Assembly (NCBI GenBank): GCA_051252395.1
Contig: JBPOFX010000001.1
Span: 557,835-621,834, forward strand
Direction: 5' to 3'
DNA length: 64,000 nucleotides
Source: Phycisphaerales bacterium
GTDB taxonomy: Bacteria; Planctomycetota; Phycisphaerae; Phycisphaerales; UBA1924
Shown: positions 7,795 through 64,000 of the stretch, in pieces
How the letters are laid out: each line of letters opens with the position of its first letter
How positions within the stretch are numbered: position 1 is the first letter of the stretch
Made by a program: the position numbers and the translations under genes
Notes under the pieces: model-generated
What the model saw: only the letters and a program-made list of their open reading frames with translations
Told to the model about the DNA's origin: nothing
Databases searched by the model: none

Positions 7795-9315
7795 TCAGAT
7801 CGCGGGTTTGGTCGCTTTCTGCGGCTCAGCGTTGATGACGACTGTCATCGGTTTGGGCAACAGATACTCAATAACATCCTTCGCTGAATACGAGGTCGCT
7901 CCAGGCTTGAGGAAGCGAGCGATATCCGCGACATCGTCGCCGGAGGTGATGAGCGGCTTCTCGAGCAATCCATCTTTCTGGATTTGACCGAGTCCAATAT
8001 TGGACATCAAGCCATTGCAGACGCATTTGCGTCCCACAGTGTCCTCCAGGACACCACCCTTTTTGAGATAGTCATCGATTGGTTCCGATGGACAGCGCCA
8101 ACCAACTTTGCCGTTCTCTTTTTTGTAGGCATGTCGAAGGTACCCAAGATCACAGATCCGGGATCGTTCTTCGTAGAGGTCCTGTTCGGACAGGGTCTCT
8201 TCCATCTTGAGTACTTTGAACGGGAATCCTGTCGGAGAAGCGACTGGGTCTGTGAAGACATGCGCCTCGCCTTGTTTGCTGAGTTCGAGGCTCGCTTCAC
8301 GGAGTTCAGAATCGAATCCTGTTTCGTTGCAGAACGCGAATGCGGTCCCGACCTGAACACCGGTAGCACCCATTTCGAGTGCTTCAGCAACGCGTTCTGG
8401 TTCAGCGTATGAACCTGCGAGCCAGAACGGGAGTCCGAGTTTGTTGATCGCTTCGAGATCACAGTCGTCGCGATCGCCGTAGATTGGTTCGCCTTCGATA
8501 CTGAGTTGCATCTTCCCGCGTGGAGGAGCGTTGTGTCCTCCTGCGGTAGGGCCTTCGATAATGAACCCGTTGACTTTCCCGCTTGATTTGCGAGCGAGCA
8601 TGCTCGCGAGCGTCGCTGAGGACACAATCGCGAGGAAGTCTGGACGGATGAGATCTGGGACCTCTCCATCACAGAACGCGACGGGATCAAATCGTGTGCA
8701 GAAATCATCCCCGGCTTCAGCGCCTTGGACATCGATCTTGAGTTCGACGGATTCTTTGCGAGCGAGACGATCGAGGATGCCTGGGATCGCTTTGGGGATT
8801 CCGGCGCCCATCAGGACATAGGAAACTCCTGCGAGCATTGCTCCGAAGATCGAGGGAAGATTCGGTGCTTGGATTTTTTCGAGGTAGTTGATCCCGACCG
8901 GCCCGTTGTGGCCTTCTTTGGCAAGGAAGACCTCGACGAAATTGGAAGCAACCAGAAGTTCCTCGAGTGTTTTCGATGGCTTCATACTCGGAACAGGTTT
9001 GGGCTTGAACGGAGTGTCATTCGCTTTGCCGCCTTCGATGAAGTATCGATCGAGGATGCGTTGTGCGACGCCTGGGATCGGGAAGTGGCTGAGTGCTCTT
9101 CGCATGTGACCCCCCGGGTCACCGACCTGGAGACGACGAGCGAGAATGATGTCGAGAGCAGTGCCGGACACCACACCGAGTTGTCCGGTTCGAGAGACAG
9201 CATTGGCGAGTGTCCAACTGGAGACTCCAGCACCCATGCCGCCTTGAATGATTGTTGGTCTTGTAGGGCTCATCATGTATGGGTATCCTAGCCCGATCTT
9301 GCCCTGTCGCCCCAT
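7795..9315 (-). CDS. FMN-dependent nitronate monooxygenase (NMO / 2-nitropropane dioxygenase)-family oxidoreductase with Cys-rich C-terminal extension
   Basis: 506 aa. PTIIQGGMGAGVSS FMN-binding signature near the N-terminus. The C-terminal ~120 aa carry C-x-n-C pairs (CDLGYL...RCPSEP...KCVCNGL). Confidence 0.65.
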   Translation of the reverse strand: MGRQGKIGLGYPYMMSPTRPTIIQGGMGAGVSSWTLANAVSRTGQLGVVSGTALDIILARRLQVGDPGGHMRRALSHFPIPGVAQRILDRYFIEGGKANDTPFKPKPVPSMKPSKTLEELLVASNFVEVFLAKEGHNGPVGINYLEKIQAPNLPSIFGAMLAGVSYVLMGAGIPKAIPGILDRLARKESVELKIDVQGAEAGDDFCTRFDPVAFCDGEVPDLIRPDFLAIVSSATLASMLARKSSGKVNGFIIEGPTAGGHNAPPRGKMQLSIEGEPIYGDRDDCDLEAINKLGLPFWLAGSYAEPERVAEALEMGATGVQVGTAFAFCNETGFDSELREASLELSKQGEAHVFTDPVASPTGFPFKVLKMEETLSEQDLYEERSRICDLGYLRHAYKKENGKVGWRCPSEPIDDYLKKGGVLEDTVGRKCVCNGLMSNIGLGQIQKDGLLEKPLITSGDDVADIARFLKPGATSYSAKDVIEYLLPKPMTVVINAEPQKATKPAI

Positions 9316-9371
9316 TTTATGGAGATCTGGGAAAGAACTCGGGATTCAATAGGGGATTGATCCCCCACTTC

Positions 9372-11075
9372 TCACCACTGCTGGCCGTTGGCACCATTGC
9401 TTGCTGTCGTGGTCTTTCTCTTGACTTGGATATCCGATTTCTTCACACGGTTCTTGACAACACCAGAACCTTGTTTGGGTTTCCCAGAATGCGGGGCTGA
9501 TTGCCCGCCCTTTCTGTGTCCGCGGCTGCTCTTGGATGAGCGATCAGAATCCTGACCCGATTGAGCCAAGGGGAATCCTCCGGAGTCCTTTTTCTTAAAC
9601 CCTTTACCTTTGAAGGGCTTGCTGCTGTTGGACTTCGAGTACGGCTTGGATTCGGAGTTGCGATCGCGTTCTTCGCCTTGCTTGGCTTCGAACTTGCCTG
9701 GTTTTTTACCAAACTTCTTCCCGGGCTTGCTTCGTGGACGATCTCCGTATTGATCGTTTGAGGACTGATCCGGCTTTCCGGAAGGTCGCTGACGATCGAA
9801 ACGCTTTGGCCCATTGGCATTGCGTTGTCCGCGATGCTTCTTTGGAGCGCCACGACGCATTGGATCCGGAGCTTTGAAGGTGATATCGGTGTGGTTGGTC
9901 CCAACTTCGATCGTGATCTTGGTGCGGCGTTCGATGGCTCGGTAGATTCCGAGTTCGCCGTAGTCACACAATGAGATTGCGATTCCGGATGCACCTGCAC
10001 GGGCTGTGCGTCCGATCCGGTGGACATAGGTCTCTGGATCGATTGGCATGTCAAAGTTAACGACATGCGTGATGTTGTCAACATCGATCCCGCGTGATGC
10101 GATATCCGTCGCGACGAGCACTTGTGTGGCGCCGGATTTGAATCGGCGCATCGTTCGCGTACGAGCGTTCTGTGTTTTGTTGCCATGGATCGCTTCAGCG
10201 TTGACACCGGATTGATTCAAGACCTTGACCAGCTTGTCGGCGCCGTGCTTTGTGCGTGTAAAGACGAGCGCACGCCCAACTTCTTCCTCTAGGAGGATGC
10301 GATCGAGCAGTTCCGCTTTAAACTCACGCTCGACAGTGTAAATACGCTGTGCGATGAGCTCCGCAGTGGAGGACTCAGGCGCGGTCTCGACCATTGCTGG
10401 CTCAAAGAGGATCGCGTCAGAGAGCGTCTTGATCTCACGCGACAGGGTCGCAGAGAAGAACAAGGTCTGACGCTCGCTCGGCATCATGTCGATCACTTTG
10501 CGGATGTCGTGGATGAATCCCATATCGAGCATCCGGTCCGCTTCATCAAGCACGAGTGTTTCGACTCGGCTCAGATCGATGTGACCCTGATTCACCAGAT
10601 CCAGCAAACGACCAGGAGTAGCGATCAGGACATCGACTCCAGCACGGAGTTCGCGGACCTGCTTGCTCTGGCTCACGCCGCCGAAGACGACGGAGTGGCG
10701 GAGAGGGAGGTTGCGGCCGTATGCGACGAAGCTCTCAAAGATCTGCATCGCGAGTTCGCGTGTTGGGCAGAGGATGAGTGCGCGAGGGGGTCGGCCGTGT
10801 CCGCCGTTGCGGTTCCGCTTTGCTTTTTTGTGCTTGGTTTCACGCTTGCCCCAGCCTGGATCTTGATCGACTGGTGCGTTCTCTGAGAGTCTGTGAAGGA
10901 TCGGGAGTGCGAAAGCACAAGTCTTCCCGGTGCCTGTTTGAGCACATCCGAGGACATCTTGACCATCCAGTGCAAACGGGATTGATTGCGCTTGGATAGG
11001 AGTCGCCGTGGTGTAGCCTTTATCGGCAACCGCGCGAACGATAGGCTCTGCGAGCCCCAGTTCATTAAAATTCAT
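9372..11075 (-). CDS. DEAD-box ATP-dependent RNA helicase with long basic/RG-rich C-terminal tail
   Basis: Q-motif (TPIQAQSIP), Walker A AQTGTGKT, DEAD, SAT, HRIGRTAR(AG) motifs. The C-terminal ~170 aa are K/R/G-rich and low-complexity. Confidence 0.9.
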   Translation of the reverse strand: MNFNELGLAEPIVRAVADKGYTTATPIQAQSIPFALDGQDVLGCAQTGTGKTCAFALPILHRLSENAPVDQDPGWGKRETKHKKAKRNRNGGHGRPPRALILCPTRELAMQIFESFVAYGRNLPLRHSVVFGGVSQSKQVRELRAGVDVLIATPGRLLDLVNQGHIDLSRVETLVLDEADRMLDMGFIHDIRKVIDMMPSERQTLFFSATLSREIKTLSDAILFEPAMVETAPESSTAELIAQRIYTVEREFKAELLDRILLEEEVGRALVFTRTKHGADKLVKVLNQSGVNAEAIHGNKTQNARTRTMRRFKSGATQVLVATDIASRGIDVDNITHVVNFDMPIDPETYVHRIGRTARAGASGIAISLCDYGELGIYRAIERRTKITIEVGTNHTDITFKAPDPMRRGAPKKHRGQRNANGPKRFDRQRPSGKPDQSSNDQYGDRPRSKPGKKFGKKPGKFEAKQGEERDRNSESKPYSKSNSSKPFKGKGFKKKDSGGFPLAQSGQDSDRSSKSSRGHRKGGQSAPHSGKPKQGSGVVKNRVKKSDIQVKRKTTTASNGANGQQW

Positions 11076-51764: not shown

Positions 51765-51910
51765 ACGCGCGCGTAGGAAAAGTCTTGGGAATATCTGTCA
51801 TACCTGTCACCATTTCCGTAAGTCATTGATTTTAATTGCCTTAAGCAGTGACAGATAGCATTCGGATCTGTCACCAATCTGTCATTTTCCCTTCTATCTG
51901 TCATGGTGCT
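51720..51910. repeat. iteron-like array: about 10 direct and inverted copies of TGACAG / (AT)CTGTCA(CC)
   Basis: gtgacaggtgacagatcgtgacagg ... atctgtcatacctgtcacc ... cagtgacagatag ... gatctgtcaccaatctgtcatttt ... ctatctgtcatgg, lying between the primase stop and the ParB-MTase start. Confidence 0.5.
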
Positions 51911-54105
51911 CACGACAGCCCACCGTTCGTCGCATCAGAATTCAGCTCCAAACCGATCCAGTACCGTTCCGAACTGTTCCGACCATCAGCAAATCCAAGC
52001 GAATGCAACCGTGATGACATCATCTTGCCGCTCACCTTCTTTTCATTGTTCTCGATGCACCATTCAGCAAACGCATCATTCAGCTCTCCCTTGGATACGG
52101 TCACCCCGTCGGCAACCACACAGCACTCATCGATAAACTGGTTCAGAGGGTTCGCGTTCTTCCGGTAGGCACTGGTCGCCGAGAGCACCGCTTCAGGTTC
52201 GGAGAGACCATGTACTTGCCACGCGAGGCACCCCCGCACCGCCCACGCGAGGATCCCATTGGCTTCCGCCTTGAGCGCATCGATTAGGTGGGGGTCGCGT
52301 TCGGACTCGGGAATGGTGACATTGAACGGGATCTGTCGGATCCGTCTCCAGATACCATGATCCACCCCTGTCATAGACGGTAGGTGGTTCCCGTAGAGCA
52401 AAAGCTTGTGGGTCGGATCAAACTCGATGGGTTCCTTGTAGAGTTGCCTCGCAACGATGCGGTCACCGCCAGTCAGATCTTTGATCAACGCCTCCCCGAA
52501 CTGCTGCCCCTCCTCAAGCTCCGACGTGATGACGAGTCTTGAACCCCGCAGTCTTGCTTTATCCGGTGTTGCGCCACCAGATGAACGCTCCGGCTTGAGG
52601 ATCAGTTCCGCGGGTGCCCGCTGGCTGTAATCGCCCAGTATGTACATGAGAATCGACGCGAAGACGCTCTTACCGTTACACCCGTTCCCATGCATGAAGA
52701 ACAAGCATTGTTCGCTCACATCACCCGTGAGCATGTAGCCTGCCACACGCCGCATGTACCCAATGAGTTCGCAGTCTGAACCGAAGATTCGGTCAAGGAA
52801 CGCGTCCCACCTCGGGCATTGAGCGGTCTCATCAAACCACGCAGGCGAGATCTTTGTATGCATCTCACTCCGGTCATGACTCCTGAACGAGCCGTTGCGA
52901 AGATTCACGGTCCCGTTGTGGCAGTTGAGGAGCATCGGATCAGCATCGAGCGTATCGACGCCAACCGTGATCCCAGGCTCGGATCGTGCGAGGTAGAGCA
53001 GTTCTTCAATACCGCGCTTGGTGCTCGTACTTTTCTGGTGCTTGGGATCCTCGATCGTGTTGGCGCAGAGCTTGGCCATGCATTCGATACGCTCGGGCTT
53101 GATCGCCCATCGGTTGGTATCCCAGACCAGCCAGTCTTTAAGCGCAAAACAGTACTTGGCTGAATCACCGTGCTGAGCGGCGAAACGTTCCCCGTTCCCG
53201 ATGCCGTGGTGTGCATACTGCTGATCGCCAATGGCTCGTACCTGACCTGTATCAATAGTGGTCTCGCGGAGTCCAGCAGAGTACCCGCTCTCGAAGGTGG
53301 ATAGCGTTTCACTCTCTTCGAGTCCGCACAGCCTTGCTCCTCGCTGGCAGAGTGCCCACGCTTCAGGTCGCGGCATTCCCTTGTTGCCCAAGGCGTAAGC
53401 GGTCGAGTTAAGTTCTGCATTCCGACTCGATTGAGCTGTCTGCCCGCGTAAAAACTGAAGGCATCTGTTCGTGAGATCGATCGACGGCTTCGTCGGGAGT
53501 CTGCTCACTACACATGAATCGAAGTCACCGCTCTGGTAGGTGTCGCCGAGGTCTTCGTTGGGTTCGTTCGGTAAGAATACCTGTGTGAGCTTCTCTGTTT
53601 TGGGAAAAATCTCCGGCTCTTTCCCCCGATTGAAACCCCAGGCTCTGAACCAGCTCACAAACTCTTCACAAGTGATCGGTTCTTGAAGCTGAAAGAACGC
53701 GTGTTGTCCCTTCCCCCCCTTGGAGGTGAACACCACAGGCGTTGCCCCAAAGAACCGGCTCAACGCACCAAGTAAGTGAACATTCCCCCCGTCGTCGGTG
53801 TGATCATCCAAATCCACACAGAACACCGAGACCATCCCGGCCAGATGCAGTACGAGCCCGATACGGCTCGCCCCCTCGATGGTGTAGTCCGAACCATCCT
53901 TCGTCGTTGACTCGAAACGCTCAGCTTCAAGCGATCCGTTCCTGTACGCTTGCACAGCGCGGTTGAAATCGCTCTTCCCGTGGATCCAGCCCGGCCCAGA
54001 CCCTCTGCTCTTCGGATACGACACGGCTGCCACATCAGCCTCACAATGTGGCAACAACCAGTCGAGCAGCTCATGCCGATCAATCCCCATAGATTCCCCC
54101 TTCAT
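51910..54105 (-). CDS. bifunctional primase-polymerase (AEP/PrimPol) N-terminal domain fused to D5/P4-family SF3 helicase domain
   Basis: VDLDDH (AEP DxD), KGGKGQHAFF (AEP hGxGxH-type motif), and the downstream Walker A GNGCNGKS typical of the P4-alpha/D5 primase C-terminal helicase. Confidence 0.8.
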   Translation of the reverse strand: MKGESMGIDRHELLDWLLPHCEADVAAVSYPKSRGSGPGWIHGKSDFNRAVQAYRNGSLEAERFESTTKDGSDYTIEGASRIGLVLHLAGMVSVFCVDLDDHTDDGGNVHLLGALSRFFGATPVVFTSKGGKGQHAFFQLQEPITCEEFVSWFRAWGFNRGKEPEIFPKTEKLTQVFLPNEPNEDLGDTYQSGDFDSCVVSRLPTKPSIDLTNRCLQFLRGQTAQSSRNAELNSTAYALGNKGMPRPEAWALCQRGARLCGLEESETLSTFESGYSAGLRETTIDTGQVRAIGDQQYAHHGIGNGERFAAQHGDSAKYCFALKDWLVWDTNRWAIKPERIECMAKLCANTIEDPKHQKSTSTKRGIEELLYLARSEPGITVGVDTLDADPMLLNCHNGTVNLRNGSFRSHDRSEMHTKISPAWFDETAQCPRWDAFLDRIFGSDCELIGYMRRVAGYMLTGDVSEQCLFFMHGNGCNGKSVFASILMYILGDYSQRAPAELILKPERSSGGATPDKARLRGSRLVITSELEEGQQFGEALIKDLTGGDRIVARQLYKEPIEFDPTHKLLLYGNHLPSMTGVDHGIWRRIRQIPFNVTIPESERDPHLIDALKAEANGILAWAVRGCLAWQVHGLSEPEAVLSATSAYRKNANPLNQFIDECCVVADGVTVSKGELNDAFAEWCIENNEKKVSGKMMSSRLHSLGFADGRNSSERYWIGLELNSDATNGGLS

Positions 54106-54110
54106 CCCCG

Positions 54111-54545
54111 CTAGTTCGCTTTCCTAGCGGGCTTGTCTTTGTTGGTGTGGTTCTCGCCCCTGAGAACCCTGAGTTTGTACCGCTCAGGCTCGAACGCTCG
54201 ATCAGCCAACGCCAAGAAGATGTGCCCCACCGACTCCCCCTCGGGTGATCCAGTATCGATCTGGATCGTCCCAAGCTGTTCGCTTGAACTGTACCGTGTT
54301 CCCAATCTGAGCTTCGCTTCGCTATAGAGCCCGCTCGCGGCGATGATCGCCAACTGAACAAGCTCCTCGGCTTCGCAGACGTCTTTCGTGTCTTCAAACT
54401 GACACTGAATCGATTTGATATTCATACTCCCCCACCAGCTGTATAGGCCTCTGGTCTTCCGAACGCTCCCCGAGCGATGAAAGTCGACAGAGACAACCCT
54501 CTCCCCATATATACATATCCAATCTGGAACGATGGTGTCGAACAA
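54111..54545 (-). CDS. hypothetical protein (144 aa) upstream of and coupled to the primase
   Basis: ORF ending 6 nt before the primase start. No motif recognised. Confidence 0.35.
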   Translation of the reverse strand: MFDTIVPDWICIYGERVVSVDFHRSGSVRKTRGLYSWWGSMNIKSIQCQFEDTKDVCEAEELVQLAIIAASGLYSEAKLRLGTRYSSSEQLGTIQIDTGSPEGESVGHIFLALADRAFEPERYKLRVLRGENHTNKDKPARKAN

Positions 54546-54548
54546 ATA

Positions 54549-55217
54549 TCACATTTCTTCGTATCTTTTGAACCGTCTTTGGATGTCGTTGCTTTGCTTC
54601 TTCACCTGGTACCTTGATACACCGCGCCATTCAGCGGTTTGCTTCACACTCGACCTCGATACTTCGAGTAGCAGATCGGCATCCTCATCTGAAATCTGCG
54701 TGAGGATGTGCTGTACATAGTCAATGAGATCAAAAAGCTCTGTGAATCTGTAATTCTCAATCCCAAGCCTGCGTGAATAACTCTCATTATCCATCAGTTC
54801 TGAGACCTCCACAAACTCCCTAGTAAGCGGATCCACCATGCAATCGCTCTGGAAGTACACCTTGTTCTCCGGGCACCTCTTTCGGGCTCTCGAATCGCGG
54901 ATGTATTTCTTGGCGAAGTTGTTGATCACCTCAGTGGCAAAGGTGATTGGTGCCGACTGGGTGGGGTCATACTGTTCATCGATTTGTATTAACCACAGTC
55001 TGCACTCTTGCTCGAAGTCTTCCCGATCACACGCCCTGATCCCCCCGCTGTTCACAAGTTCCGTTGCCTGAACCACAATGTGTGTCTGAACCTTGTCGTC
55101 GTCAATGAGTCTGTACTGTGATTTCATTCGCATCTTTCCCCCGCTGATACGGGATTCTCGCTTGTGATCTAGGCGCAGGATACCTGTGCCGCGATGACTC
55201 ACGGCAAACTTGGGCAC
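54549..55217 (-). CDS. putative sigma-70/ECF-like sigma factor or HTH regulator
   Basis: The C-terminal LLEVSRSSVKQTAEWRGVSRYQVKK resembles a sigma region-4 HTH. A weak region-2-like segment precedes it. Confidence 0.4.
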   Translation of the reverse strand: MPKFAVSHRGTGILRLDHKRESRISGGKMRMKSQYRLIDDDKVQTHIVVQATELVNSGGIRACDREDFEQECRLWLIQIDEQYDPTQSAPITFATEVINNFAKKYIRDSRARKRCPENKVYFQSDCMVDPLTREFVEVSELMDNESYSRRLGIENYRFTELFDLIDYVQHILTQISDEDADLLLEVSRSSVKQTAEWRGVSRYQVKKQSNDIQRRFKRYEEM

Positions 55218-55463
55218 TGCCCTAGACCGATGTGATTTCTGCTTGGATCAGTTCAACTTCTGCTCTTCCCACCCGTCATTCCATTGGATAACCCTCCCCG
55301 TTTCTTTGGGTTTGATGATCGTGATTGAGTTGATTGGGATGATCCCACCCCATTCGAAATCATGTACACTCACAGCTCATGAATGGCCCGAGTGCTGTCT
55401 TTGGCACTGAAATTATAGCGAAGATAGCGACTTCGCGACTTGCATAGATTGTGGATTGCGCTG

Positions 55464-55871
55464 TTATTTTTCGCCATGCAAGCTCTTGAGCTCCTCCCAG
55501 CGCAGAACTTGCTCACTCCATCGTACGAGAGACACAACCTCTCGAATCCCATGCTCATGGATACGGTCTTCCCATGGATCTGAGCCATTAAAGTCCAAGA
55601 TCTCTTCTTGGATCAAAGGACACAAATGCAACAGGTTCATGATCTGCGTCATCCGTGGCTGCGTCACTTGAGCCAGCAACGCAAGCTCTGACTGATTCTC
55701 CATCACACCGTCCTTGAGCAGTTGGTCGTACCGGATCGCGAGCGCCATCAGCTTGGAGATCCTTGGGACTCTCTGCCCGCCCTGCTCACCCTGTTCAGGC
55801 TCTGGCTCACGCACGATCCGTTTGCGTTTACCATTCACCGCGAAATGTACCGGTCTCGTCACTGTCGTCAT
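55464..55871 (-). CDS. hypothetical protein (135 aa) coupled to the serine recombinase (ATGA overlap)
   Basis: ORF overlapping the recombinase stop by 4 nt. Unknown function. Confidence 0.35.
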   Translation of the reverse strand: MTTVTRPVHFAVNGKRKRIVREPEPEQGEQGGQRVPRISKLMALAIRYDQLLKDGVMENQSELALLAQVTQPRMTQIMNLLHLCPLIQEEILDFNGSDPWEDRIHEHGIREVVSLVRWSEQVLRWEELKSLHGEK

Positions 55872-57436
55872 GCCGCCTCCTGATTCTGTTGCAGATCCGC
55901 CAGCTTCTCAAACTCATTTGGGCGGTACGTGATCTGCACGCACTGCCCCTCCGCGTCGTACTCGACCTTCTCGATCAGCAGCTTGAGCAAGCGAGCCTGC
56001 TCGCGTGGGATCAGGTTCGACCAGACTTCGTCGAAGTCCCCGAGCATGACCCCGATCGCTTCTGAGTCGATCTGCTCGCCCTGGGCCGATTCCAGCCGAT
56101 CCCGGATCCGCTCTGCACGGCGTTCATTGGCCGCGATGATCCCCTGAAGCTCCGTGACCCGCTCTTGATCATCGCTCGGCTGCCGAATCAACTTGGTAAG
56201 GGCCCCGCGCTGATTGGCCAGTTCACCGTTCACCTCCGAGAGCTCCAGTTCGAGACCTTGGATATCTTCAGTACGCTTCAATGTGGCTTGCTCAATTGTC
56301 TTCTCGAAGATCGACGGGTCGCGAAACAACTCCCGGACTTCCTCGATGACCAACTGTTCGATCTCCGGGGCGGGGAGACTCCCTGAGTTGCACTCGGCTG
56401 CCCCCTTCTTGATCGCCCCCACACACCGGTAGTACCGGTACTGGCGGCTTCGTTTTCCCCGAGCCGTCGTAAAGACGTGCGTCATCGCGTGGTCGCACCC
56501 CTTGCACCGCAGGATCCCCCTGAGCAACGCCCCGTACTTGTTGCGGACCTCGGCCCCTCCGGTGCGCCCGTTGTGCTTGAGGGTCTTCTGGACCCGCTCG
56601 AAGACCTCTGCCTTGATGATCGCTTCGTGCTCACCCTCATAGATGTCACCCTTATGCGTGATCTTTCCGGTGTAGATGGGGTTGGTGAGGTGGTTGTAGA
56701 GGGTGGACTTGTCGAAGGGACGATCCCCGATGGGCTTGCCCTTGGCCGTCACCCGCTTCTTGTTGCGCCAGTCCCGCAGACGGAGTTCCTCGCATACCGG
56801 CTGGAGCGATTGCTTCTCAAGATAGAGATCAAAGATCGCTCTGATCCGCGATGCTTCAGCTGCGTTGACCACCAGCTTCGGACTCCCGGTGCTCCGATCC
56901 ACGTCGTATCCCAGCATCGGGACACCCCCGGTCCACTTACCCTTGCGTTTCTGAGCGGCGATCTTGTCGCGGATCCGCTCGCCGATGATCTCCCGCTCAA
57001 ACTGAGCGAAGCTGAGGAGGATGTTGAGTGTTAATCGCCCCATCGAGCTCGTCGTGTTGAACTGCTGCGTCACCGACACGAACGAAACCCCGTTGGCATC
57101 AAACGACTCCATGATCTTCGAGAAGTCCATCAGCGAGCGGCTGAGCCGGTCCACCTTGTAGACGACCACGCAGTCTATCTTCCCCGCCTCAATATCCCGC
57201 ATCAACCGGTCCATCGCCGGACGCTCGAGGCTCCCGCCCGAGAACCCCCCATCGTTGTACTGCTCGGGGAGACACACCCACCCCTGTGCCTTCTGGCTGG
57301 CGATGAACGCCTCGGCGCTTTCTCGTTGCGCGTCAAGGGAGTTGAACTCCTGCTCTAATCCCTCCTCGCTGCTCTTGCGTGTGTAGATCGCGCATCGGAT
57401 CGTCTTCGGTGTTGTACTGCCACTCTTGTGGTTCAT
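55868..57436 (-). CDS. large serine recombinase (resolvase catalytic domain, recombinase domain and zinc-ribbon / coiled-coil)
   Basis: The N-terminus AIYTRKSSEEG...SLDAQRE...VVYKVDRLSRS places the catalytic Ser in YTRKSS. It is 522 aa with the C-terminal Cys pairs and coiled coil typical of phiC31/TnpX-type integrases. Confidence 0.9.
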   Translation of the reverse strand: MNHKSGSTTPKTIRCAIYTRKSSEEGLEQEFNSLDAQRESAEAFIASQKAQGWVCLPEQYNDGGFSGGSLERPAMDRLMRDIEAGKIDCVVVYKVDRLSRSLMDFSKIMESFDANGVSFVSVTQQFNTTSSMGRLTLNILLSFAQFEREIIGERIRDKIAAQKRKGKWTGGVPMLGYDVDRSTGSPKLVVNAAEASRIRAIFDLYLEKQSLQPVCEELRLRDWRNKKRVTAKGKPIGDRPFDKSTLYNHLTNPIYTGKITHKGDIYEGEHEAIIKAEVFERVQKTLKHNGRTGGAEVRNKYGALLRGILRCKGCDHAMTHVFTTARGKRSRQYRYYRCVGAIKKGAAECNSGSLPAPEIEQLVIEEVRELFRDPSIFEKTIEQATLKRTEDIQGLELELSEVNGELANQRGALTKLIRQPSDDQERVTELQGIIAANERRAERIRDRLESAQGEQIDSEAIGVMLGDFDEVWSNLIPREQARLLKLLIEKVEYDAEGQCVQITYRPNEFEKLADLQQNQEAA

Positions 57437-57462
57437 AGACCCCCCTTTGGTACTCGTTTCAC

Positions 57463-57975
57463 CTACTTACCCCCTAATTGAAAGAACCGGAAGCCGTTGA
57501 TATGGCTCCCGGTAATGTGCTTGGCGACCGCACTCAGTGTCGCGTACCGATCCCCGTTGTATTCAAACCCGTCCCCATCCGGCAGGACCGTCACCCGGAC
57601 GGTCTCACCCTTGTACTCGCGGACGATCACCGACCCCACGCTCGGGAGCCTCGGATCCCTCGGCGTGTACGGTTTCGTGACAGAAACCCGCATACCAGCC
57701 TGTGGCGGGCTCACAAACGACTTGGGTGCCATCACCCGGATATCGGAGTCATTAGCGAGTTCAGCCGCCCGAGCCTTCGCACGCTCACTCAGTCCTCCCA
57801 TCGCGTTCGCTTGAATCCGCCACGCGATCTTGCGGATCAGATACTGACGATGCCGTGTCCGAACAGGCTGGCCGTGAAGCTCGTCGTACTTCACCGAGAG
57901 TTCCCCCGTCGTCATGTGCTGCAGCTCATCGAGCTGAGTTTCAATCTTCGAATCGATTGCCTGGGCCAAAATCAC
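57463..57975 (-). CDS. DUF2924-family protein (recombinase-associated)
   Basis: It carries TGELSVKYDELHGQPVRTRHRQYLIRKIAWRIQ, the DUF2924 hallmark region. It lies immediately upstream of, and co-oriented with, the serine recombinase, as is typical. Confidence 0.7.
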   Translation of the reverse strand: MILAQAIDSKIETQLDELQHMTTGELSVKYDELHGQPVRTRHRQYLIRKIAWRIQANAMGGLSERAKARAAELANDSDIRVMAPKSFVSPPQAGMRVSVTKPYTPRDPRLPSVGSVIVREYKGETVRVTVLPDGDGFEYNGDRYATLSAVAKHITGSHINGFRFFQLGGK

Positions 57976-58639: not shown

Positions 58640-60301
58640 ATGTTACGTGATGAAACACAGTCCTTCCTAAATGATTTGGACCGCAAACTATGGGCCACCG
58701 CCGACAAACTCCGAAACAACCTCGACGCCGCCCAGTACAAACACGCCGTGCTCGGCCTGATCTTCCTGAAGTATGTCTCCGACGCCTTCGACACTCGCCG
58801 TGAGGCCGTCAAGGCCGAACTCGGTGACCCCAAGAGCGATCTTTACTTCGAGGACGCTACGGAAGATGACCTCCACACAGAGCTGGAAGACCGTGACTAC
58901 TACACCAGCCAGAACACATTCTGGGTCCCTCCACTCGCCCGCTGGCAAAACCTCCAGTCCTGGGCCAAACTCCCCTCACAGACCACGGTCGAGGTCAGAA
59001 ACGGTAAGACCGAGGAGTACACGATCAAGAGCACCGCCCTGCTCATCGACGACGCCCTCGCCGCCATCGAAAAAGAGAACGACACCCTCAAAAATGTCCT
59101 CGCCAAAGACACCTACGCCCGCCTCCAACTCGACCCCGACAACCTCCGCGGCCTCATCGACCTCGTCGCCTCCATCCCCTTCACGCACGACAAGCTCCAA
59201 CCCAAAGACATCCTCGGCCACGTCTACGAGTACTTCCTCGGCCAGTTTGCCCTCGCGGAGGGCAAGAAGGGCGGCCAGTACTTCACGCCTAAGTCCATCG
59301 TCGGGCTCATCGTTGAAATGCTCCAGCCCTACTGGGGGCGCGTCTACGACCCCGCCATGGGTTCGGGCGGTTTCTTCGTCGAGATCGAAAAACATGTCGA
59401 GCAGAAGTACGCCGAGGACACCCACGGCACCCACGGCTCCATCTCCGTCTACGGCCAGGAATCCAACCCCACCACCTGGCGGCTGGCCGCGATGAACATG
59501 GCCATCCGCGGCATCGACTACAACTTCGGCAAGGCCTGGGCCAACAGCTTCACCAGCGACCAGCACCCCGACCTCCGGGCCGACTTCGTCATGGCCAACC
59601 CGCCGTTCAATGTGAGTGACTGGTGGGACGCCAAGCTCGAAAATGACCCGCGCTGGAAGCACGGCACACCCCCCAAGGGCAATGCCAACTTCGCATGGGT
59701 CCAGCACATGCTCCACCACCTCGCCCCCACCGGCAGCATGGCCCTGCTGCTGGCCAACGGCTCCATGTCGGGCACCAGCGGCGGCGAGGGTGACATCCGC
59801 AAGTCTTTGGTCGAGAACGACCTCGTCGAGTGCATGGTCGCCCTGCCCGGCCAGCTCTTTACCAACACCCAGATCCCCGCCTGCATCTGGTTCCTCACCA
59901 AGGACAAGTCCGCCCGCGACGGCAAGCGTGACCGCACCGGCCAGGTCCTCTTCCTCGACGCCCGCGATGTTGGATACATGAAAGACCGCGTCCTGCGCGA
60001 CTTCACCGCCGACGACACGCAAAAGATCGCCGGCACCTTCCACGCCTGGCAGAGAATGGGCGGCGAGTACAAGGACATCCCCGGCTTCTGCAAGGAGGCC
60101 ACCCTCAAAGAGATCGCCGCCCACGGCCACGTCCTCACCCCAGGCCGCTACGTCGGTGCCGCTGAAGCCGAGGACGACGGCGAACCCTTCGAGGGGAAGA
60201 TGCAACGCCTGACCACCGAGCTCCGTGATCAGTTCGCCGAGGCTGCAAAGCTCGAGGCGAGGATCCGTAAGAACCTGGAGGAGGTGGGGCATGGGGTCTG
60301 A
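58640..60301 (+). CDS. hsdM: type I restriction-modification system methyltransferase subunit
   Basis: N-terminal LWATADKLRNN (HsdM N-domain), NPPF catalytic motif (FVMANPPFNVSDWW), SAM-binding GSGGF. 553 aa. Confidence 0.9.
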   Translation: MLRDETQSFLNDLDRKLWATADKLRNNLDAAQYKHAVLGLIFLKYVSDAFDTRREAVKAELGDPKSDLYFEDATEDDLHTELEDRDYYTSQNTFWVPPLARWQNLQSWAKLPSQTTVEVRNGKTEEYTIKSTALLIDDALAAIEKENDTLKNVLAKDTYARLQLDPDNLRGLIDLVASIPFTHDKLQPKDILGHVYEYFLGQFALAEGKKGGQYFTPKSIVGLIVEMLQPYWGRVYDPAMGSGGFFVEIEKHVEQKYAEDTHGTHGSISVYGQESNPTTWRLAAMNMAIRGIDYNFGKAWANSFTSDQHPDLRADFVMANPPFNVSDWWDAKLENDPRWKHGTPPKGNANFAWVQHMLHHLAPTGSMALLLANGSMSGTSGGEGDIRKSLVENDLVECMVALPGQLFTNTQIPACIWFLTKDKSARDGKRDRTGQVLFLDARDVGYMKDRVLRDFTADDTQKIAGTFHAWQRMGGEYKDIPGFCKEATLKEIAAHGHVLTPGRYVGAAEAEDDGEPFEGKMQRLTTELRDQFAEAAKLEARIRKNLEEVGHGV

Positions 60302-61571
60302 GTGGTCAGCGGTGCCGCTAGGCGAGGTCGCGAGCGTTCGATCTGGCTATGCATTCAAAAGCAGAGACTGGACGGATTCCGGCGTTCCTGTTGTGAAGAT
60401 TGCAAATGTGAAGGCGGGTCGCCTCGATCTCAACGGTTGTTCGTTCGTCACAGAAGAAATTGCCGAAAGCGCGGGTGAGTTTAATCTTGAGCTCGACGAC
60501 ATCGTAATCGCGATGACCGGGTACATCGGCGAAACAGCAAGGGTTCAGTCAACCGACCTGCCATGCGTTCTCAACCAACGGGTCGGTAAATTCAAGGTCA
60601 TGGACAGCAATCGGCTTGATCCGGACTATCTCTACGCGTTTCTCAGTTGGAAGAGCACTCGGGAACGGATTGAAGCACTTGGCTACGGCTCGGCTCAGCC
60701 GAACGTCTCGCCGAAGCTAATTCATCAAATCAAAATCCCGCTTCCCCCGATGCCCAAACAACAGGCAATTGCGGAGGTGTTGGGGTCACTGGACGACAAG
60801 ATCGAGTTGAACCGCCGGATGAACCGGACGCTGGAGTCGATGGCCCGGGCGCTGTTCAAGAGCTGGTTCGTCGACTTCGACCCCGTCCACGCCAACGCCG
60901 CCGGCAAACCAACCCTGCCGCCTAAACTCGCCGCCCTGTTTCCCGACAGATTCGATCCGTCCCGGATTGGTGATATCCCGGAGGGATGGGAAGTTCGGAG
61001 CCTCGACGAGATTGCCAACTACCTCAACGGTTTGGCATTGCAGAAGTACCCTGCCGAGGAAGGCGAACCAACGCTGCCACGACTGAAGATTGCCCAGCTT
61101 CGCAAGGGCAACACCGAAGGCGCAGATCTGAGCAACACGAACGTTCCATACAAATACATCGTTCAAAATGGCGATGTGATCTTCTCGTGGTCTGGTTCGC
61201 TGCTTGTACGTCTCTGGACTGGCGGCAAGGCGGCATTGAACCAGCACTTATTTAAAGTATCTAGCGATGAGTTTCCTCGCTGGTTTTTTTATCTATGGAC
61301 TCAGCACCACCTCGACGATTTTCAAGCCACAGCTGCAGCCAAGGCTACGACAATGGGGCATATCCAGCGCCATCACCTAAGCGATGCGAAGGTGATAGTC
61401 CCCCCAGCGTCATCCATTGCTTCACTTGACGCTGTCTTCTCGCCGATCATTGATAGACTTGTGATGAACGACCTGGAATCACGAAACCTCTCAGAGATCC
61501 GCGATTCGTTGCTCGGCCCGCTTCTATCAGGCGACATGCAGATCAACATGCCCAAAGGGGGTGAGAAGTGA
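60291..61571 (+). CDS. hsdS: type I restriction-modification system specificity subunit (two TRDs)
   Basis: The start ATG overlaps the hsdM stop. Central and C-terminal conserved repeats (IPLPPMPKQQAIAEVLGSLDDKIELNRRMNRTLESMARALFKSWFVDFDPV and VIVPPASSIASLDAVFSPIIDRLVMNDLESRNLSEIRDSLLGPLL) flank two variable target-recognition domains. Confidence 0.85.
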   Translation: MGSEWSAVPLGEVASVRSGYAFKSRDWTDSGVPVVKIANVKAGRLDLNGCSFVTEEIAESAGEFNLELDDIVIAMTGYIGETARVQSTDLPCVLNQRVGKFKVMDSNRLDPDYLYAFLSWKSTRERIEALGYGSAQPNVSPKLIHQIKIPLPPMPKQQAIAEVLGSLDDKIELNRRMNRTLESMARALFKSWFVDFDPVHANAAGKPTLPPKLAALFPDRFDPSRIGDIPEGWEVRSLDEIANYLNGLALQKYPAEEGEPTLPRLKIAQLRKGNTEGADLSNTNVPYKYIVQNGDVIFSWSGSLLVRLWTGGKAALNQHLFKVSSDEFPRWFFYLWTQHHLDDFQATAAAKATTMGHIQRHHLSDAKVIVPPASSIASLDAVFSPIIDRLVMNDLESRNLSEIRDSLLGPLLSGDMQINMPKGGEK

Positions 61572-62722
61572 GCATCGACGAGACGAAATTGGACCAGACA
61601 CTTATGTCTGCCGCAGAAGGGGCTTTGAAAGAGGCCTATGAGCAACACGAAGAGTTCAATGCGGCGCTCGACAAGCAGAATGACGAGGTGGTCATTCAGA
61701 GCCTAATCAAGGACCAGAAGCCGTGGCAGGTTCGCCCCTCCGAAGTAATCTACTTAACAGATCGTATCGGGTACGAGGTTGAGAGAGCGGCATGGCAAGA
61801 ACGTGAGATTCGCGACAAGAACTCTGATGCATTTCGCGTCATCATGGATGGGGAACACCAGACTGCCATACATGATTTAGCAACCGCAATTGCACGAGGG
61901 CGCGTGGCTCCGTTTGTTGGGGCCGGACTTTCGGCTTTTGCTTATCCTTTGTGGGGGGATGCTCTTAAGACACTGATCGACCGAATCGGTGACCTTGACA
62001 GAGAAACCATTCATGACTTAATCGACTCAGGTCAGTATCTAGAGGCGGCGCAAGGGCTCTGGGAAGCTGACTCAATAACCGTGAAGGCATTCATACGGGA
62101 TCGCTTTGGAATCAACCGCATCGGAAGTGGTGACGCAAAGGGAGCCGTACCTCTCCTGAAGGCGATCACTAATGGCTGCATCATCACCACCAACTTTGAC
62201 TCCGTGATCGAACAGGTGGTTGGCGACGGCCAATTTGATGGCTATATGCACGGACTACAACGGTCCGCGAAATTTAACGCCCGACTCATCAGTGGCGATA
62301 GATGTCTCATGAAGCTCCATGGCGACTCAGACGACGACAGCACGTATATTCTGACCCAAGATCAATACACAGCGGCGTACGGCGATCCGCTCGATTACGA
62401 AGCACCTGTCGCAAGCACGCTCAGACATATTTTCCTTAGTCACTCGTTACTTTTTCTCGGATGCAGCCTTGAGCAGGATCGCACGCTTGAGCTCCTAGCC
62501 GATGTCTGCTCTAAGAATGAGCAACTTGTCCCAGACCACTACGCGATCATCGTTGAACCAGAGGGGGGCAGGGCAAAAGTAGAGAAAGAGCAGCGTCTTA
62601 GGAACATGAAAATTCGGCCGATATGGTATCCACCCAACAAGCACCATTACGTTGAACAGATTCTACGAGTTGCAATCGCACTTTCTGAAGGATCCATCAC
62701 ATCGTTGGAGCCGCAAAAATGA
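61568..62722 (+). CDS. SIR2-like (SIR2_2 / ThsA-type) NAD-binding domain protein inserted between hsdS and hsdR
   Basis: 384 aa. The GTG start overlaps the hsdS stop (GTGA) and the stop overlaps the hsdR start (ATGA). It has the motifs PFVGAGLSAFAYPLWGDAL, CIITTNFDSVIEQ, CLMKLHGDSDDDSTYILTQDQY and LLFLGCSLEQD. These are the Rossmann glycine-rich loop, the TTNYD-type Asn and the KLHGS-type His blocks of the SIR2_2 family, preceded by a ~100-aa helical N-terminal extension. Confidence 0.8.
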   Translation: MSIDETKLDQTLMSAAEGALKEAYEQHEEFNAALDKQNDEVVIQSLIKDQKPWQVRPSEVIYLTDRIGYEVERAAWQEREIRDKNSDAFRVIMDGEHQTAIHDLATAIARGRVAPFVGAGLSAFAYPLWGDALKTLIDRIGDLDRETIHDLIDSGQYLEAAQGLWEADSITVKAFIRDRFGINRIGSGDAKGAVPLLKAITNGCIITTNFDSVIEQVVGDGQFDGYMHGLQRSAKFNARLISGDRCLMKLHGDSDDDSTYILTQDQYTAAYGDPLDYEAPVASTLRHIFLSHSLLFLGCSLEQDRTLELLADVCSKNEQLVPDHYAIIVEPEGGRAKVEKEQRLRNMKIRPIWYPPNKHHYVEQILRVAIALSEGSITSLEPQK

Positions 62723-64000
62723 TCAGTGAAGACTCTGTCGAGAAACAAGCGATCGCCTGGTTTCAAGAGACGGGATGGTCCTACCTCCACGGCTCAAAAC
62801 TTGCCCCAGACATCGCGACCGAGCAGCGGGCAGACGGACGGGCCGTCATTCTCAATGGTCGGTTCAAGGATGCCATCCACCGCCTCAACCCGCAACTCCC
62901 GCCCGAGGCGGCCGAGGAGGTCGCAAGGGTTGCCATCCAACCCGAGCACCCTGACCTTGCCCGAGCCAATGCCGCGTTTCATCGCAAGCTCGTCGACGGC
63001 GTTCCGGTCGTCTATACCGATGCCAGCGGCAAGAAACAACAGGACGTGGCCCGCTTGGTCGACTTCGCGGATGCCAAGAACAACGACTGGCTGGTTGTCA
63101 ATCAGCTGGCTGTGTCGGGCACGAAGGGCGGGCGGCGGCCGGATATCGTGTGTTACATTAACGGTCTACCGATTTCTGTGATTGAGTTGAAGAACCCGGC
63201 GGACAAGAACGCGGATGTGTGGGCGGCCTACCGGCAGCTGCAGACCTACAAGGACGAGATCGGCGACCTGTTCCTCACCAACGAGGCGCTTGTCATCAGC
63301 GACGGTATCATCGCCCGCGCCGGTTCGCTCACAGCAAGTCCTGAGTGGTTCATGCCGTGGCGGACGCTCGCCAGTGAGAGCGACACACCGGCAGTAGAGT
63401 TCGAGCTGGAGCGTGTCATTCGAGGCTTCTTCCGCCCTGACCTGTTGCTGGACTACCTGAGGTACTTCGTGCTCTTCGAGGGCGAAGAGGATGTGGTGAA
63501 GAAAATCGCCGGTTACCACCAGTTCCACGGTGTGCGGGCGGCGGTCGAGCAGACACTAATGGCGACCAAGCACGAGGGTAAGGCCGGTGTATTCTGGCAC
63601 ACGCAGGGCTCAGGCAAAAGCATCTCGATGGCGATGTACGCCGGAAAGCTCTTACAGCAACCGGGCATGCGGAACCCGACACTGGTGGTCGTCACCGATC
63701 GCAACGACCTTGACGGCCAGCTCTTTGGTCAATTCGCTGCAGCGAAAGCGCTGCTTCGTGAGGCCCCACAGCAGGCGGATAGCCGGGAACAACTACGCGA
63801 AATCCTCGACGGGCGACAGTCGGGCGGGATCGTTTTCACCACGGTGCAGAAGTTCTCGCCTATGAACGATGAGGAAACACACCCCGTTCTGAGCAAGCGA
63901 AGCAATATCGTCGTCATCAGCGACGAGGCACACCGCAGCCAGTACGGGATCAAGCCCAGGCTCGACATGAAGACCGGCAAGTATGTCTACGGCTACGCCA
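62719..64000 (+). CDS. hsdR: type I restriction enzyme R subunit (HsdR), N-terminal ~427 aa; continues beyond the window end
   Basis: Frame 1 from ATG 62719 is open to the window end. It starts MISEDSVEKQAIAWFQETGW (the typical HsdR N-terminus) and carries helicase motif I WHTQGSGKS and motif II ISDEAHRSQ. It is absent from the ORF track because there is no stop. The ORF-track entry 62726-63181 is in a different frame and spurious. Confidence 0.85.
   Translation, partial: MISEDSVEKQAIAWFQETGWSYLHGSKLAPDIATEQRADGRAVILNGRFKDAIHRLNPQLPPEAAEEVARVAIQPEHPDLARANAAFHRKLVDGVPVVYTDASGKKQQDVARLVDFADAKNNDWLVVNQLAVSGTKGGRRPDIVCYINGLPISVIELKNPADKNADVWAAYRQLQTYKDEIGDLFLTNEALVISDGIIARAGSLTASPEWFMPWRTLASESDTPAVEFELERVIRGFFRPDLLLDYLRYFVLFEGEEDVVKKIAGYHQFHGVRAAVEQTLMATKHEGKAGVFWHTQGSGKSISMAMYAGKLLQQPGMRNPTLVVVTDRNDLDGQLFGQFAAAKALLREAPQQADSREQLREILDGRQSGGIVFTTVQKFSPMNDEETHPVLSKRSNIVVISDEAHRSQYGIKPRLDMKTGKYVYGYA

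Follow-up and report, generated by a model that had tools for sequence, protein, structure and literature searches.

A SIR2 protein family embedded in one type I restriction-modification subfamily is a candidate R-M-guarded, NAD+-depleting effector

At the end of a 64,000-nucleotide stretch of DNA from a Phycisphaerales bacterium (GenBank assembly GCA_051252395.1, contig JBPOFX010000001.1, positions 557,835 to 621,834 of the forward strand; hereafter, the window), a type I restriction-modification (R-M) operon carries a SIR2-family gene between hsdS, which encodes the specificity subunit, and hsdR, which encodes the restriction subunit. The product is a SIR2_2 protein of the clade of defence NADases, enzymes that hydrolyse nicotinamide adenine dinucleotide (NAD+), and its NAD pocket is intact. 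The members of this SIR2 family that we inspected all sit in one type I R-M subfamily. By analogy with PrrC, a toxin that occupies the same place in another type I operon, we tentatively propose that SIR2 is a dedicated accessory of the R-M complex, a latent NAD+-depleting effector that the complex would control.

The four genes of the operon lie on the + strand without intergenic space. An earlier note on this DNA, made from its letters alone, had described the genes as overlapping by 4 nt or by shared start and stop codons; according to the open reading frame (ORF) list and the raw sequence, every junction does overlap and the two that flank SIR2 do so by 4 nt, but the overlap of hsdM and hsdS is 11 nt. 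The features of the operon are as follows.

hsdM, 58640-60301, + strand: type I R-M methyltransferase subunit, 553 amino acids (aa); TGA stop at 60299-60301
hsdM/hsdS junction, 60291-60301, + strand: 11-nt overlap, from the hsdS ATG to the last base of the hsdM stop; ATGGGGTCTGA
hsdS, 60291-61571, + strand: specificity subunit, 426 aa; Pfam Methylase_S in two stretches, 1e-36
hsdS/SIR2 junction, 61568-61571, + strand: GTGA; the SIR2 GTG start at 61568 overlaps the hsdS stop at 61569-61571
SIR2-family gene, 61568-62722, + strand: 384 aa; predicted NAD+ hydrolase effector
SIR2/hsdR junction, 62719-62722, + strand: ATGA; the hsdR ATG at 62719 overlaps the SIR2 stop at 62720-62722
hsdR, 62719-64000, + strand: restriction/translocase subunit; first 427 aa in the window, full protein of 1045 aa on the source contig

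Pfam, PADLOC and NCBIfam agree that this is a complete type I R-M system in which HsdM, HsdS and HsdR each have their diagnostic domains. HsdM matches HsdM_N and N6_Mtase in Pfam (2e-109) and MTase_I in PADLOC (5e-174). HsdS has two variable target-recognition domains flanking a conserved central region (60786-61018); its start is most likely the ATG at 60291, which is also the start in an independent gene call on the source contig (L095, 7724-9004), and a spacing of -11 is the commonest hsdM/hsdS spacing across the genome loci surveyed below. The part of HsdR within the window matches HSDR_N (aa 2-209, profile positions 2-197 of 198), SWI2_SNF2/ResIII and TIGR00348 (hsdR, 1e-93), and the full-length protein on the source contig also has T1R_D3-like and T1RH-like_C domains. 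The GTG start of SIR2 aligns with Met-1 of its homologues. Inside the operon we found no promoter-like or terminator-like sites above shuffle expectation, using a sigma-70 consensus that may not suit a Phycisphaerales genome. The SIR2 gene is probably co-transcribed with the hsd genes and co-translated with hsdS.

Profile searches assign the SIR2 ORF to Pfam SIR2_2 (PF13289; E = 1e-25, 90.9 bits against a cut-off of 24.5 bits) over aa 204-352, where the earlier note had allowed for the ORF falling into a non-SIR2 family or being a piece of a frameshifted hsdR. In PADLOC the ORF matches the SIR2 part only of ThsA (9.6e-21; profile positions 4-243 of 478), with LmuA-SIR2 second-best (3e-17), and a weak match to Dsr1 (2.6e-6) is likewise confined to the SIR2 part. 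Pfam and PADLOC gave SIR2-type families only, with no ABC, AAA_13 or PrrC match, so the protein is not a PrrC or RloC. No SLOG, TPR, STAND or other sensor domain was found in its 384 aa. A homologue search of 5.8 billion proteins returned 1427 matches, the best 120 of which are 343-390 aa long, are 39-59% identical to the query and cover 89-99% of it; because the homologues cover almost the whole query, the N-terminal extension that precedes the SIR2 domain is a conserved family trait rather than a peculiarity of this one protein. RefSeq labels this family merely 'SIR2 family protein', and PADLOC-DB v2.0.0 contains no model specific to it. The parts of the protein to which we refer are listed here.

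N-terminal helical domain, 61568-61852, + strand: aa 1-95; four main helices and a beta hairpin
GAGLS glycine-rich NAD-binding loop, 61919-61933, + strand: aa 118-122; G118, A119 and G120 invariant in 117 sequences
TTNFD motif, 62186-62200, + strand: aa 207-211; predicted catalytic Asn209 and Asp211
KLHGD motif, 62312-62326, + strand: aa 249-253; predicted catalytic His251

In the alignment of 117 members, T207, T208, N209 and D211 of the TTNFD motif and K249, L250, H251 and G252 of the KLHGD motif are invariant, and in the 54 complete loci on which our motif and co-inheritance statistics are based, GAGx[S/C], TTN[FY]D and KLHG are each present in 54 of 54. TTNFD aligns to TTNYD of the ThsA structures 6lhx and 7uxt, and KLHGD aligns to KMHGD/KLHGD of ThsA. 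A profile search of Protein Data Bank (PDB) sequences returned ThsA (1e-17 to 3e-16), KomC, DSR2 and human FAM118B, with TTNxD and KxHGD aligned. The AlphaFold2 model of the protein has a predicted local distance difference test score (pLDDT) of 93.7 and a predicted template modelling score (pTM) of 0.89. Its Rossmann part finds BcThsA (8btp) as the top Foldseek match (E = 1.5e-12; TM-score 0.54, query-normalised), with further matches to DSR2, KomC, SeThsA and the Avs5 filament; the top matches are all defence NADases, and the PDB profile search yields this same set beside FAM118B. The motifs that the earlier note had read as those of NAD-depleting defence enzymes are thus present, conserved and aligned to ThsA, with the catalytic Asn and His conserved, and the comparison of structures that it had called for puts BcThsA first. 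From this pattern of residues we infer that the protein is a catalytically competent NAD+ hydrolase.

The N-terminal extension, which the same note had put at about 100 aa, proved real in both the alignment and the model: it is a domain of about 95 aa that is conserved in, and specific to, this SIR2 family. R66 and Y69 are invariant and S58 is nearly invariant in the 117-member alignment, and a structure search of the model found no known fold relative for aa 1-95. Among proteins P0162-P0264 there are also many multidomain proteins of 450-1470 aa in which a very close SIR2 domain (~200 bits, query aa 85-375) is fused to other regions; one of these, P0179, has TPR repeats.

To place the family in its genomic context, we surveyed one genome per species (185,579 species), queried with two SIR2 peptide patterns only, and obtained 79 loci, whose Hsd neighbours were identified by phmmer with the Hsd proteins of the window. 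In all 79 loci, hsdS lies directly upstream and/or hsdR downstream on the same strand, and the order is hsdM-hsdS-SIR2-hsdR wherever the contig is long enough. The same order was found in three of three plasmid matches, including a conjugative Photobacterium plasmid, in five of five protein-sampled members (the closest homologue, P0002, and four others from the protein search) and in seven further loci, for a total of 94 of 94 inspected operons. The earlier note had considered that this ORF might never be linked to type I R-M elsewhere; the hsdS-SIR2-hsdR arrangement instead recurs. The 79 loci are spread over more than 10 phyla, archaea included. The bacterial loci come from Acidobacteriota, Bacteroidota, Alpha-, Beta- and Gammaproteobacteria, Desulfuromonadia, Nitrospira and Cyanobacteria, and further from Planctomycetota, Verrucomicrobiota, Chloroflexota, SAR324 and Bacillus; the three archaeal loci belong to Methanosarcinales and Methanoperedens. 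The family also occurs in Pseudomonas, Aeromonas, Vibrio, Photobacterium and Stenotrophomonas.

Within these operons, SIR2 stays closely joined to hsdS. Of the 73 genome loci in which both genes are visible, 68 have a gap between them of -14 to +20 nt. Other genes do enter some of the loci: YhcG/DUF1016 nucleases, AlbA_2/HATPase_c_4 proteins, an MNT nucleotidyltransferase and IS5 between hsdM and hsdS, and AlbA_2/HATPase_c_4, AAA_21, Abi_2, Mrr_cat, DUF4276 and DUF3800 between SIR2 and hsdR. These accessory genes are variable, are absent from most loci and almost never lie between hsdS and SIR2. SIR2 is the constant, innermost passenger of the operon.

Several individual loci merit separate mention. 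On pPHDD1, the conjugative plasmid of Photobacterium damselae (L093), a 266-aa ORF without a Pfam match (6166-6963) lies between hsdS and SIR2, a rare interruption, and the operon is closely preceded by a gene for the antiviral reverse transcriptase Drt2. L094 (Ketogulonicigenium vulgare plasmid p3), L098 and L138 carry a shorter sibling SIR2 subfamily, 341-357 aa long and truncated in the N-terminal domain, likewise in the order hsdM-hsdS-SIR2-hsdR; the HsdR of L138 belongs to another clade, where it is surrounded by systems carrying other cargo. At L061, L076 and L077 the whole hsdM-hsdS-SIR2-hsdR cassette is in several ORF fragments, which could reflect decay or assembly and frameshift errors in metagenome-assembled genomes, and these three loci were left out of the statistics.

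In a neighbour-joining ordering of 160 HsdR N-termini, the SIR2-linked HsdRs form one block. Compared with type IA and type IC references, which were covered as solved chains, the HsdM of the window is closest to 3khk (1e-199) and far from EcoR124 (IC, 6e-37) and EcoKI (IA, 2e-20), and its HsdR matches EcoR124 HsdR at 6e-31. Because its HsdM is far from EcoR124 and closest to 3khk, the host R-M system differs from the EcoprrI family, which hosts PrrC.

The restriction enzyme itself appears to be in working order. In the window, HsdR retains its PD...ELK nuclease motif (PDIVCYINGLPISVIELK), GSGKS and DEAHR, and D...ELK, GSGKS (Walker A) and DEAHR are present in 54 of 54 loci, with the Pro before the catalytic Asp replaced by Leu in one. 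We considered SIR2 as a replacement for the HsdR nuclease and rejected this, because the nuclease and helicase motifs are intact throughout; SIR2 is better described as a layer added to a restriction-proficient enzyme. Across the same loci, mean pairwise identity is 0.67 for HsdM, 0.67 for HsdR, 0.46 for SIR2 and 0.30 for HsdS, and the pairwise identities of SIR2 follow those of HsdM (Mantel r 0.88) and HsdR (0.86) almost as closely as HsdM and HsdR follow each other (0.90). Partial correlations calculated from these values singled out neither HsdM nor HsdR as the preferred partner and were not used.

Viewed from the R-M side, the association is looser. We surveyed HsdR in reverse, obtaining 13 metagenome loci with a single-protein query and 80 viral-contig loci with an alignment-based scan. 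Among the 61 viral-contig loci with both hsdS and hsdR visible, the slot between them is empty in 15, is taken by SIR2 in three and by other genes in 43. Among those other genes are Abi_C (11 loci), AAA_13 (five), DUF3644 (three), DUF4268, an M78 peptidase, NYN and a DEAD helicase. A few non-SIR2 systems are also nested inside the SIR2-linked HsdR block (L080, L082, L084, the L097/L100/L102 group, L107, and L089 with L109); the HsdR of L084 is 90% identical to SIR2-linked HsdRs, yet this locus carries Abi_2. Of the HsdR-sampled loci that fall inside the block, about five have SIR2 and nine do not, in a small and partly redundant sample. Because all inspected SIR2 members are in R-M operons, while related R-M systems carry other cargo or none, the dependence is one-way: the SIR2 family needs this R-M subfamily, and the R-M subfamily does not need SIR2. 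The view of SIR2 as an integral member of the operon, put forward in the earlier note, therefore stands for the SIR2 family, given its synteny in 79 of 79, 3 of 3 and 5 of 5 loci, and fails in the other direction.

The nearest relative of the window's R-M system illustrates this exchange. At L080 (metagenome contig Ga0209692_10000199), HsdM and HsdR are 89% and 85% identical to those of the window at the protein level, but SIR2 is missing and the hsdS-hsdR slot (8293-10005) instead contains DarT (PF14487, 2e-32) and a gene for a macro-domain (DarG-like) protein. By blastn, the window matches L080 in hsdM (58658-60302, 85%), in the centre of hsdS (60786-61018, 83%) and in hsdR from its ATG at 62719 (80%), so that the nucleotide match resumes exactly at the SIR2/hsdR junction; the hsdS recognition domains and SIR2 have no nucleotide match to L080. 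The GC content of SIR2 is 0.49-0.53, against 0.60-0.66 for hsdM and hsdR. The lack of a match to L080 and the lower GC content, set against an hsdM and hsdR that are 80-85% identical, indicate that the SIR2 of the window is a swapped-in cassette, and the presence of DarT at L080 where the window has SIR2 indicates that two different NAD+-consuming toxins alternate in the same slot. In a related type I system, on the IMG/VR contigs L139 (957-5864) and L136, the hsdS-hsdR slot holds a different SIR2 protein of 587 aa (PADLOC candidate PDC-S65, 6e-217) together with an AAA_13 ABC ATPase of 764 aa (PDC-S06), which weakly matches the PrrC ATPase (2e-12). SIR2 effectors have thus entered the slot more than once, as this PDC-S65-type protein is also found there.

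How might a SIR2 enzyme in this position be controlled? Among the known SIR2 defence systems, none matches the SIR2 domain better, in sequence or in structure, than Thoeris ThsA, which has the same catalytic Asn and His motifs; unlike ThsA, the protein described here has no SLOG (gcADPR-binding) domain, has a different N-terminal domain and is encoded in an R-M operon instead of thsAB. No ThsB/TIR gene adjoins it, the immediate neighbours being hsdS and hsdR in the window and in the surveyed loci; the TIR profile was not run on more distant genes. DSR2, DSR1, Avs5, KomC and SIR2-HerA share the SIR2_2 clade and fold with it, but DSR and Avs5 have large sensor domains (DSR1 and DSR2 are ~1000-1200 aa long with a large C-terminal sensor region, compared with 384 aa here), and SIR2-HerA and KomC have dedicated partners (HerA and KomB, respectively); the protein described here has neither. 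Pfam and the gene calls reveal no HerA, SMC-like LmuB or prokaryotic Argonaute (pAgo) partner gene in the operon. Membership in Thoeris, DSR, SIR2-HerA or Lamassu was accordingly rejected, there being no SLOG or sensor domain and no partner gene.

The defence SIR2 NADases (ThsA, DSR2, SIR2-HerA, KomC and Avs5) cause abortive infection through NAD+ depletion, and in SPARSA and SIR2-HerA the SIR2 enzyme is driven by a nucleic-acid-sensing partner. To our knowledge, the characterised enzymes of the SIR2_2 defence clade are all latent NADases that are activated by a sensing partner or domain, usually via oligomerisation, and the structures that Foldseek matched represent just these states. The sole constant partners of the family described here are the Hsd subunits. 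Because the protein has no sensor domain of its own and these subunits are its only constant partners, the R-M complex is the candidate partner, and the N-terminal domain, being family-specific, is the obvious candidate docking element.

There is a precedent for such an arrangement. In EcoprrI, a type IC system with the gene order prrA-prrB-prrC-prrD, the toxic effector PrrC is encoded between prrB (hsdS) and prrD (hsdR), which is where SIR2 sits, so the comparison drawn in the earlier note is apt: both operons have the form M-S-X-R, with X the effector. Like the SIR2 family, PrrC is all but confined to type I R-M systems (Payne et al. 2024 preprint). Association with the prrA/prrB/prrD R-M enzyme keeps it latent, and the T4 anti-restriction peptide Stp activates it (PMC3025547). 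The two proteins are not homologous: PrrC combines an ABC-type NTPase with a HEPN ribonuclease that cuts tRNA-Lys, whereas the SIR2 protein has a Rossmann fold and is predicted to hydrolyse NAD+. Masking and triggering have been demonstrated for PrrC; for the SIR2 family we infer physical masking by the R-M complex and the trigger, along with NADase activity and an abortive outcome.

We favour a PrrC-like mechanism because PrrC is the best-documented toxin precedent in the same slot, and we put it forward as a possibility that falls short of an even chance. SIR2 would be made from the same transcript as HsdM, HsdS and HsdR, with its translation coupled to that of hsdS, and would be held inactive by the assembled R-M complex. 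Its 95-aa N-terminal domain may dock it on HsdM2S or HsdR and thereby keep it monomeric and silent until an anti-restriction protein acts or the complex is lost, when NAD+ would be drained; this docking step is conceivable to about the same tentative degree. Release would come when a phage disables or overwhelms restriction, for example by means of Ocr-, ArdA- or Stp-like anti-restriction proteins, and the released SIR2 would probably oligomerise like other defence SIR2 enzymes. The NAD+ collapse would then arrest or kill the infected cell before phage progeny are made. Such a system would have two layers, with restriction as the first line and NAD+ depletion when restriction is neutralised; it would follow the logic of PrrC with NAD+ depletion in place of tRNA cleavage.

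Several observations weigh against this PrrC-like mechanism. The cassette is exchangeable, with the near-identical R-M framework of L080 carrying DarT and a macro-domain gene, and the slot also hosts systems known to act independently (Abi_2, Fic and DarTG). The Mantel correlations can be produced by co-transfer alone. We also looked for a SIR2-specific signature in HsdS and found none: the C-terminal motif of HsdS (consensus LRDTLLPKLLSGEL; window IRDSLLGPLLSGDM) is also present in systems without SIR2 and does not differ between linked and unlinked loci, so we see no sign of adaptation on the partner's side. Finally, loss of restriction and its engagement would fit the data alike as the activating signal.

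Most of these points would suit an autonomous, single-gene SIR2 defence, in which the N-terminal domain senses a phage component and the hsdS-hsdR slot is a hotspot for co-mobilised, co-expressed cargo. The variability of the slot in the 61 viral-contig loci, with occupants that include Abi_C, AAA_13, DUF3644, NYN, Fic and DarTG, is what such a hotspot would look like; so are the clean swap of SIR2 into the R-M framework of the window and the lack of a SIR2-specific signature in HsdS, and very close SIR2 domains are present in the large multidomain proteins, which presumably act alone. However, a self-sufficient gene would be expected to occur sometimes outside R-M operons or in other R-M families, and none does among the 79 genome, three plasmid and five protein-sampled loci; all members are in a single HsdR/HsdM subfamily, and the tight, mostly overlapping junction with hsdS is kept while other cargo inserts around SIR2. 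We consider autonomy unlikely, though a contender to be taken seriously.

A second alternative keeps the R-M complex as the controlling partner and reverses the trigger. Here the type I enzyme would be the sensor, and its engagement of unmodified DNA would switch SIR2 on, for instance when a translocating HsdR stalls or collides. NAD+ depletion would then be added to DNA cleavage, in a manner comparable to the link between nucleic-acid sensing and a SIR2 enzyme in pAgo-SIR2, SIR2-HerA and Lamassu. The obligate context and co-inheritance fit this as well as they fit a PrrC-like mechanism, PADLOC ranks LmuA, the SIR2-type effector of Lamassu, second after ThsA, and other defence SIR2 enzymes (SPARSA and SIR2-HerA) are driven by nucleic-acid-sensing partners. 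Yet with the HsdR nuclease intact, a suicidal response each time DNA is restricted would seem to add little and to cost the cell much; in restriction alleviation, type I enzymes work on host DNA too, so that self-killing would be a risk, and PrrC, the only characterised occupant of the slot, is triggered by the inhibition of restriction and not by restriction. This makes activation by engagement doubtful.

Less probable still is that SIR2 is a regulator and not a killer, one that tunes restriction without depleting NAD+ by modifying an Hsd subunit or DNA as a protein deacylase or a mono-ADP-ribosyltransferase; a variant is that it might aid restriction alleviation or establishment after horizontal transfer. 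The SIR2 fold does include deacylases and ADP-ribosyltransferases, and ADP-ribosylation was raised for these proteins by Makarova et al. 2012 (PMC3506569); the strict link to one R-M subfamily would fit a dedicated substrate, and the sister locus L080 has the ADP-ribosyltransferase DarT in the same slot. However, the close sequence and structure matches are all SIR2_2 NAD+ glycohydrolase effectors and not classical PF02146 sirtuins, and in many genomes R-M systems of this subfamily do without SIR2, which basic restriction control therefore does not require. We regard a purely regulatory role as improbable. That the ORF is an artefact, either a frameshifted or split N-terminus of hsdR or a chance ORF, is scarcely credible, because HsdR has its own complete HSDR_N from residue 2 and because the ORF is a full-length member of a large family (1427 homologues), is modelled with a pLDDT of 93.7 and is called as a separate gene on independent contigs.

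The surroundings of the operon give some indication of how it may move. Directly upstream, on the - strand, the window contains an integrative mobile element (51910-57975) with the following genes.

D5_N/DUF5906 primase-helicase, 51910-54105, - strand: mobile element
ORF with a weak sigma-70 region 2 match, 54549-55217, - strand: mobile element
Large serine recombinase, 55868-57436, - strand: mobile element
DUF2924 protein, 57463-57975, - strand: mobile element

This element may carry the R-M/SIR2 operon as cargo, or the operon may lie at its edge. Just past the end of the window, the source contig has a gene for a 193-aa Mrr_N-domain protein after hsdR (L095, 13644-14225), and Mrr_cat or McrB-like genes also adjoin the operon at several related loci; these neighbours suggest a small defence island. 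On several betaproteobacterial-type contigs (L180, L181 and L182), the operon is at the same chromosomal site, flanked by a GMP synthase gene (GATase, NAD_synthase and GMP_synt_C) together with an Mrr_cat gene and, across the operon from these, by a LysR regulator, which suggests a conserved integration hotspot.

Parts of this picture have been anticipated. Makarova, Anantharaman, Aravind and Koonin (2012; PMC3506569) listed Sir2 among the toxin-like domains in type I and type III R-M systems, with Sir2 enzymes linked to type I, and read this through a PrrC-based hypothesis in which immunity is coupled to suicide; the link between SIR2 and type I R-M and the PrrC analogy are therefore not new, and the novelty that the earlier note claimed for the two-layer design was overstated. 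Their treatment is one sentence and a figure panel, which do not define the family, its exclusive embedding, its single R-M subfamily, its N-terminal domain or the swapping of cassettes, and it predates the discovery of SIR2 defence enzymes as NADases. A later review (PMC3632139) describes R-M loci as holding variable co-expressed genes, with PrrC as the worked example, and mentions Sir2 for pAgo and in a figure legend. The 'guilt by embedding' preprint of Payne et al. 2024 describes cargo nested inside type I R-M, BREX and Hachiman defence systems, and accessory genes of the types it describes (ABC ATPases, YhcG and Abi) also surround SIR2 in our loci; neither its text nor its 11 supplements mention SIR2. 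In the published literature that we searched, we found no definition of this particular SIR2 family and no experimental study of a SIR2 embedded in hsdMSR, the matches to 'SIR2 + hsdR' being strain genotypes or SIR2-HerA near R-M genes.

What we describe is therefore a known effector type in a known architecture, a pairing predicted in passing over a decade ago, and a candidate for a second R-M-guarded abortive-infection system. Because the family is compact and widespread and occurs in tractable genera, the question of whether R-M guards SIR2 is directly testable: the operon has four genes, and its one small effector offers two obvious point mutations. If SIR2 turned out to be autonomous, it would be another single-gene SIR2 defence that rides in an already known cargo hotspot. 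If the PrrC-like mechanism is correct, phages with Ocr-, ArdA- or Stp-type anti-restriction proteins would be predicted to pay a price on hosts with the operon, and the family would represent a widespread second 'guarded restriction enzyme' of the PrrC type, in bacteria and archaea, in which a classical R-M enzyme doubles as an immune guardee. PrrC would then be no one-off, and R-M-guarded abortive infection would be a general design with interchangeable effectors: a HEPN RNase, a SIR2 NADase and possibly DarT.

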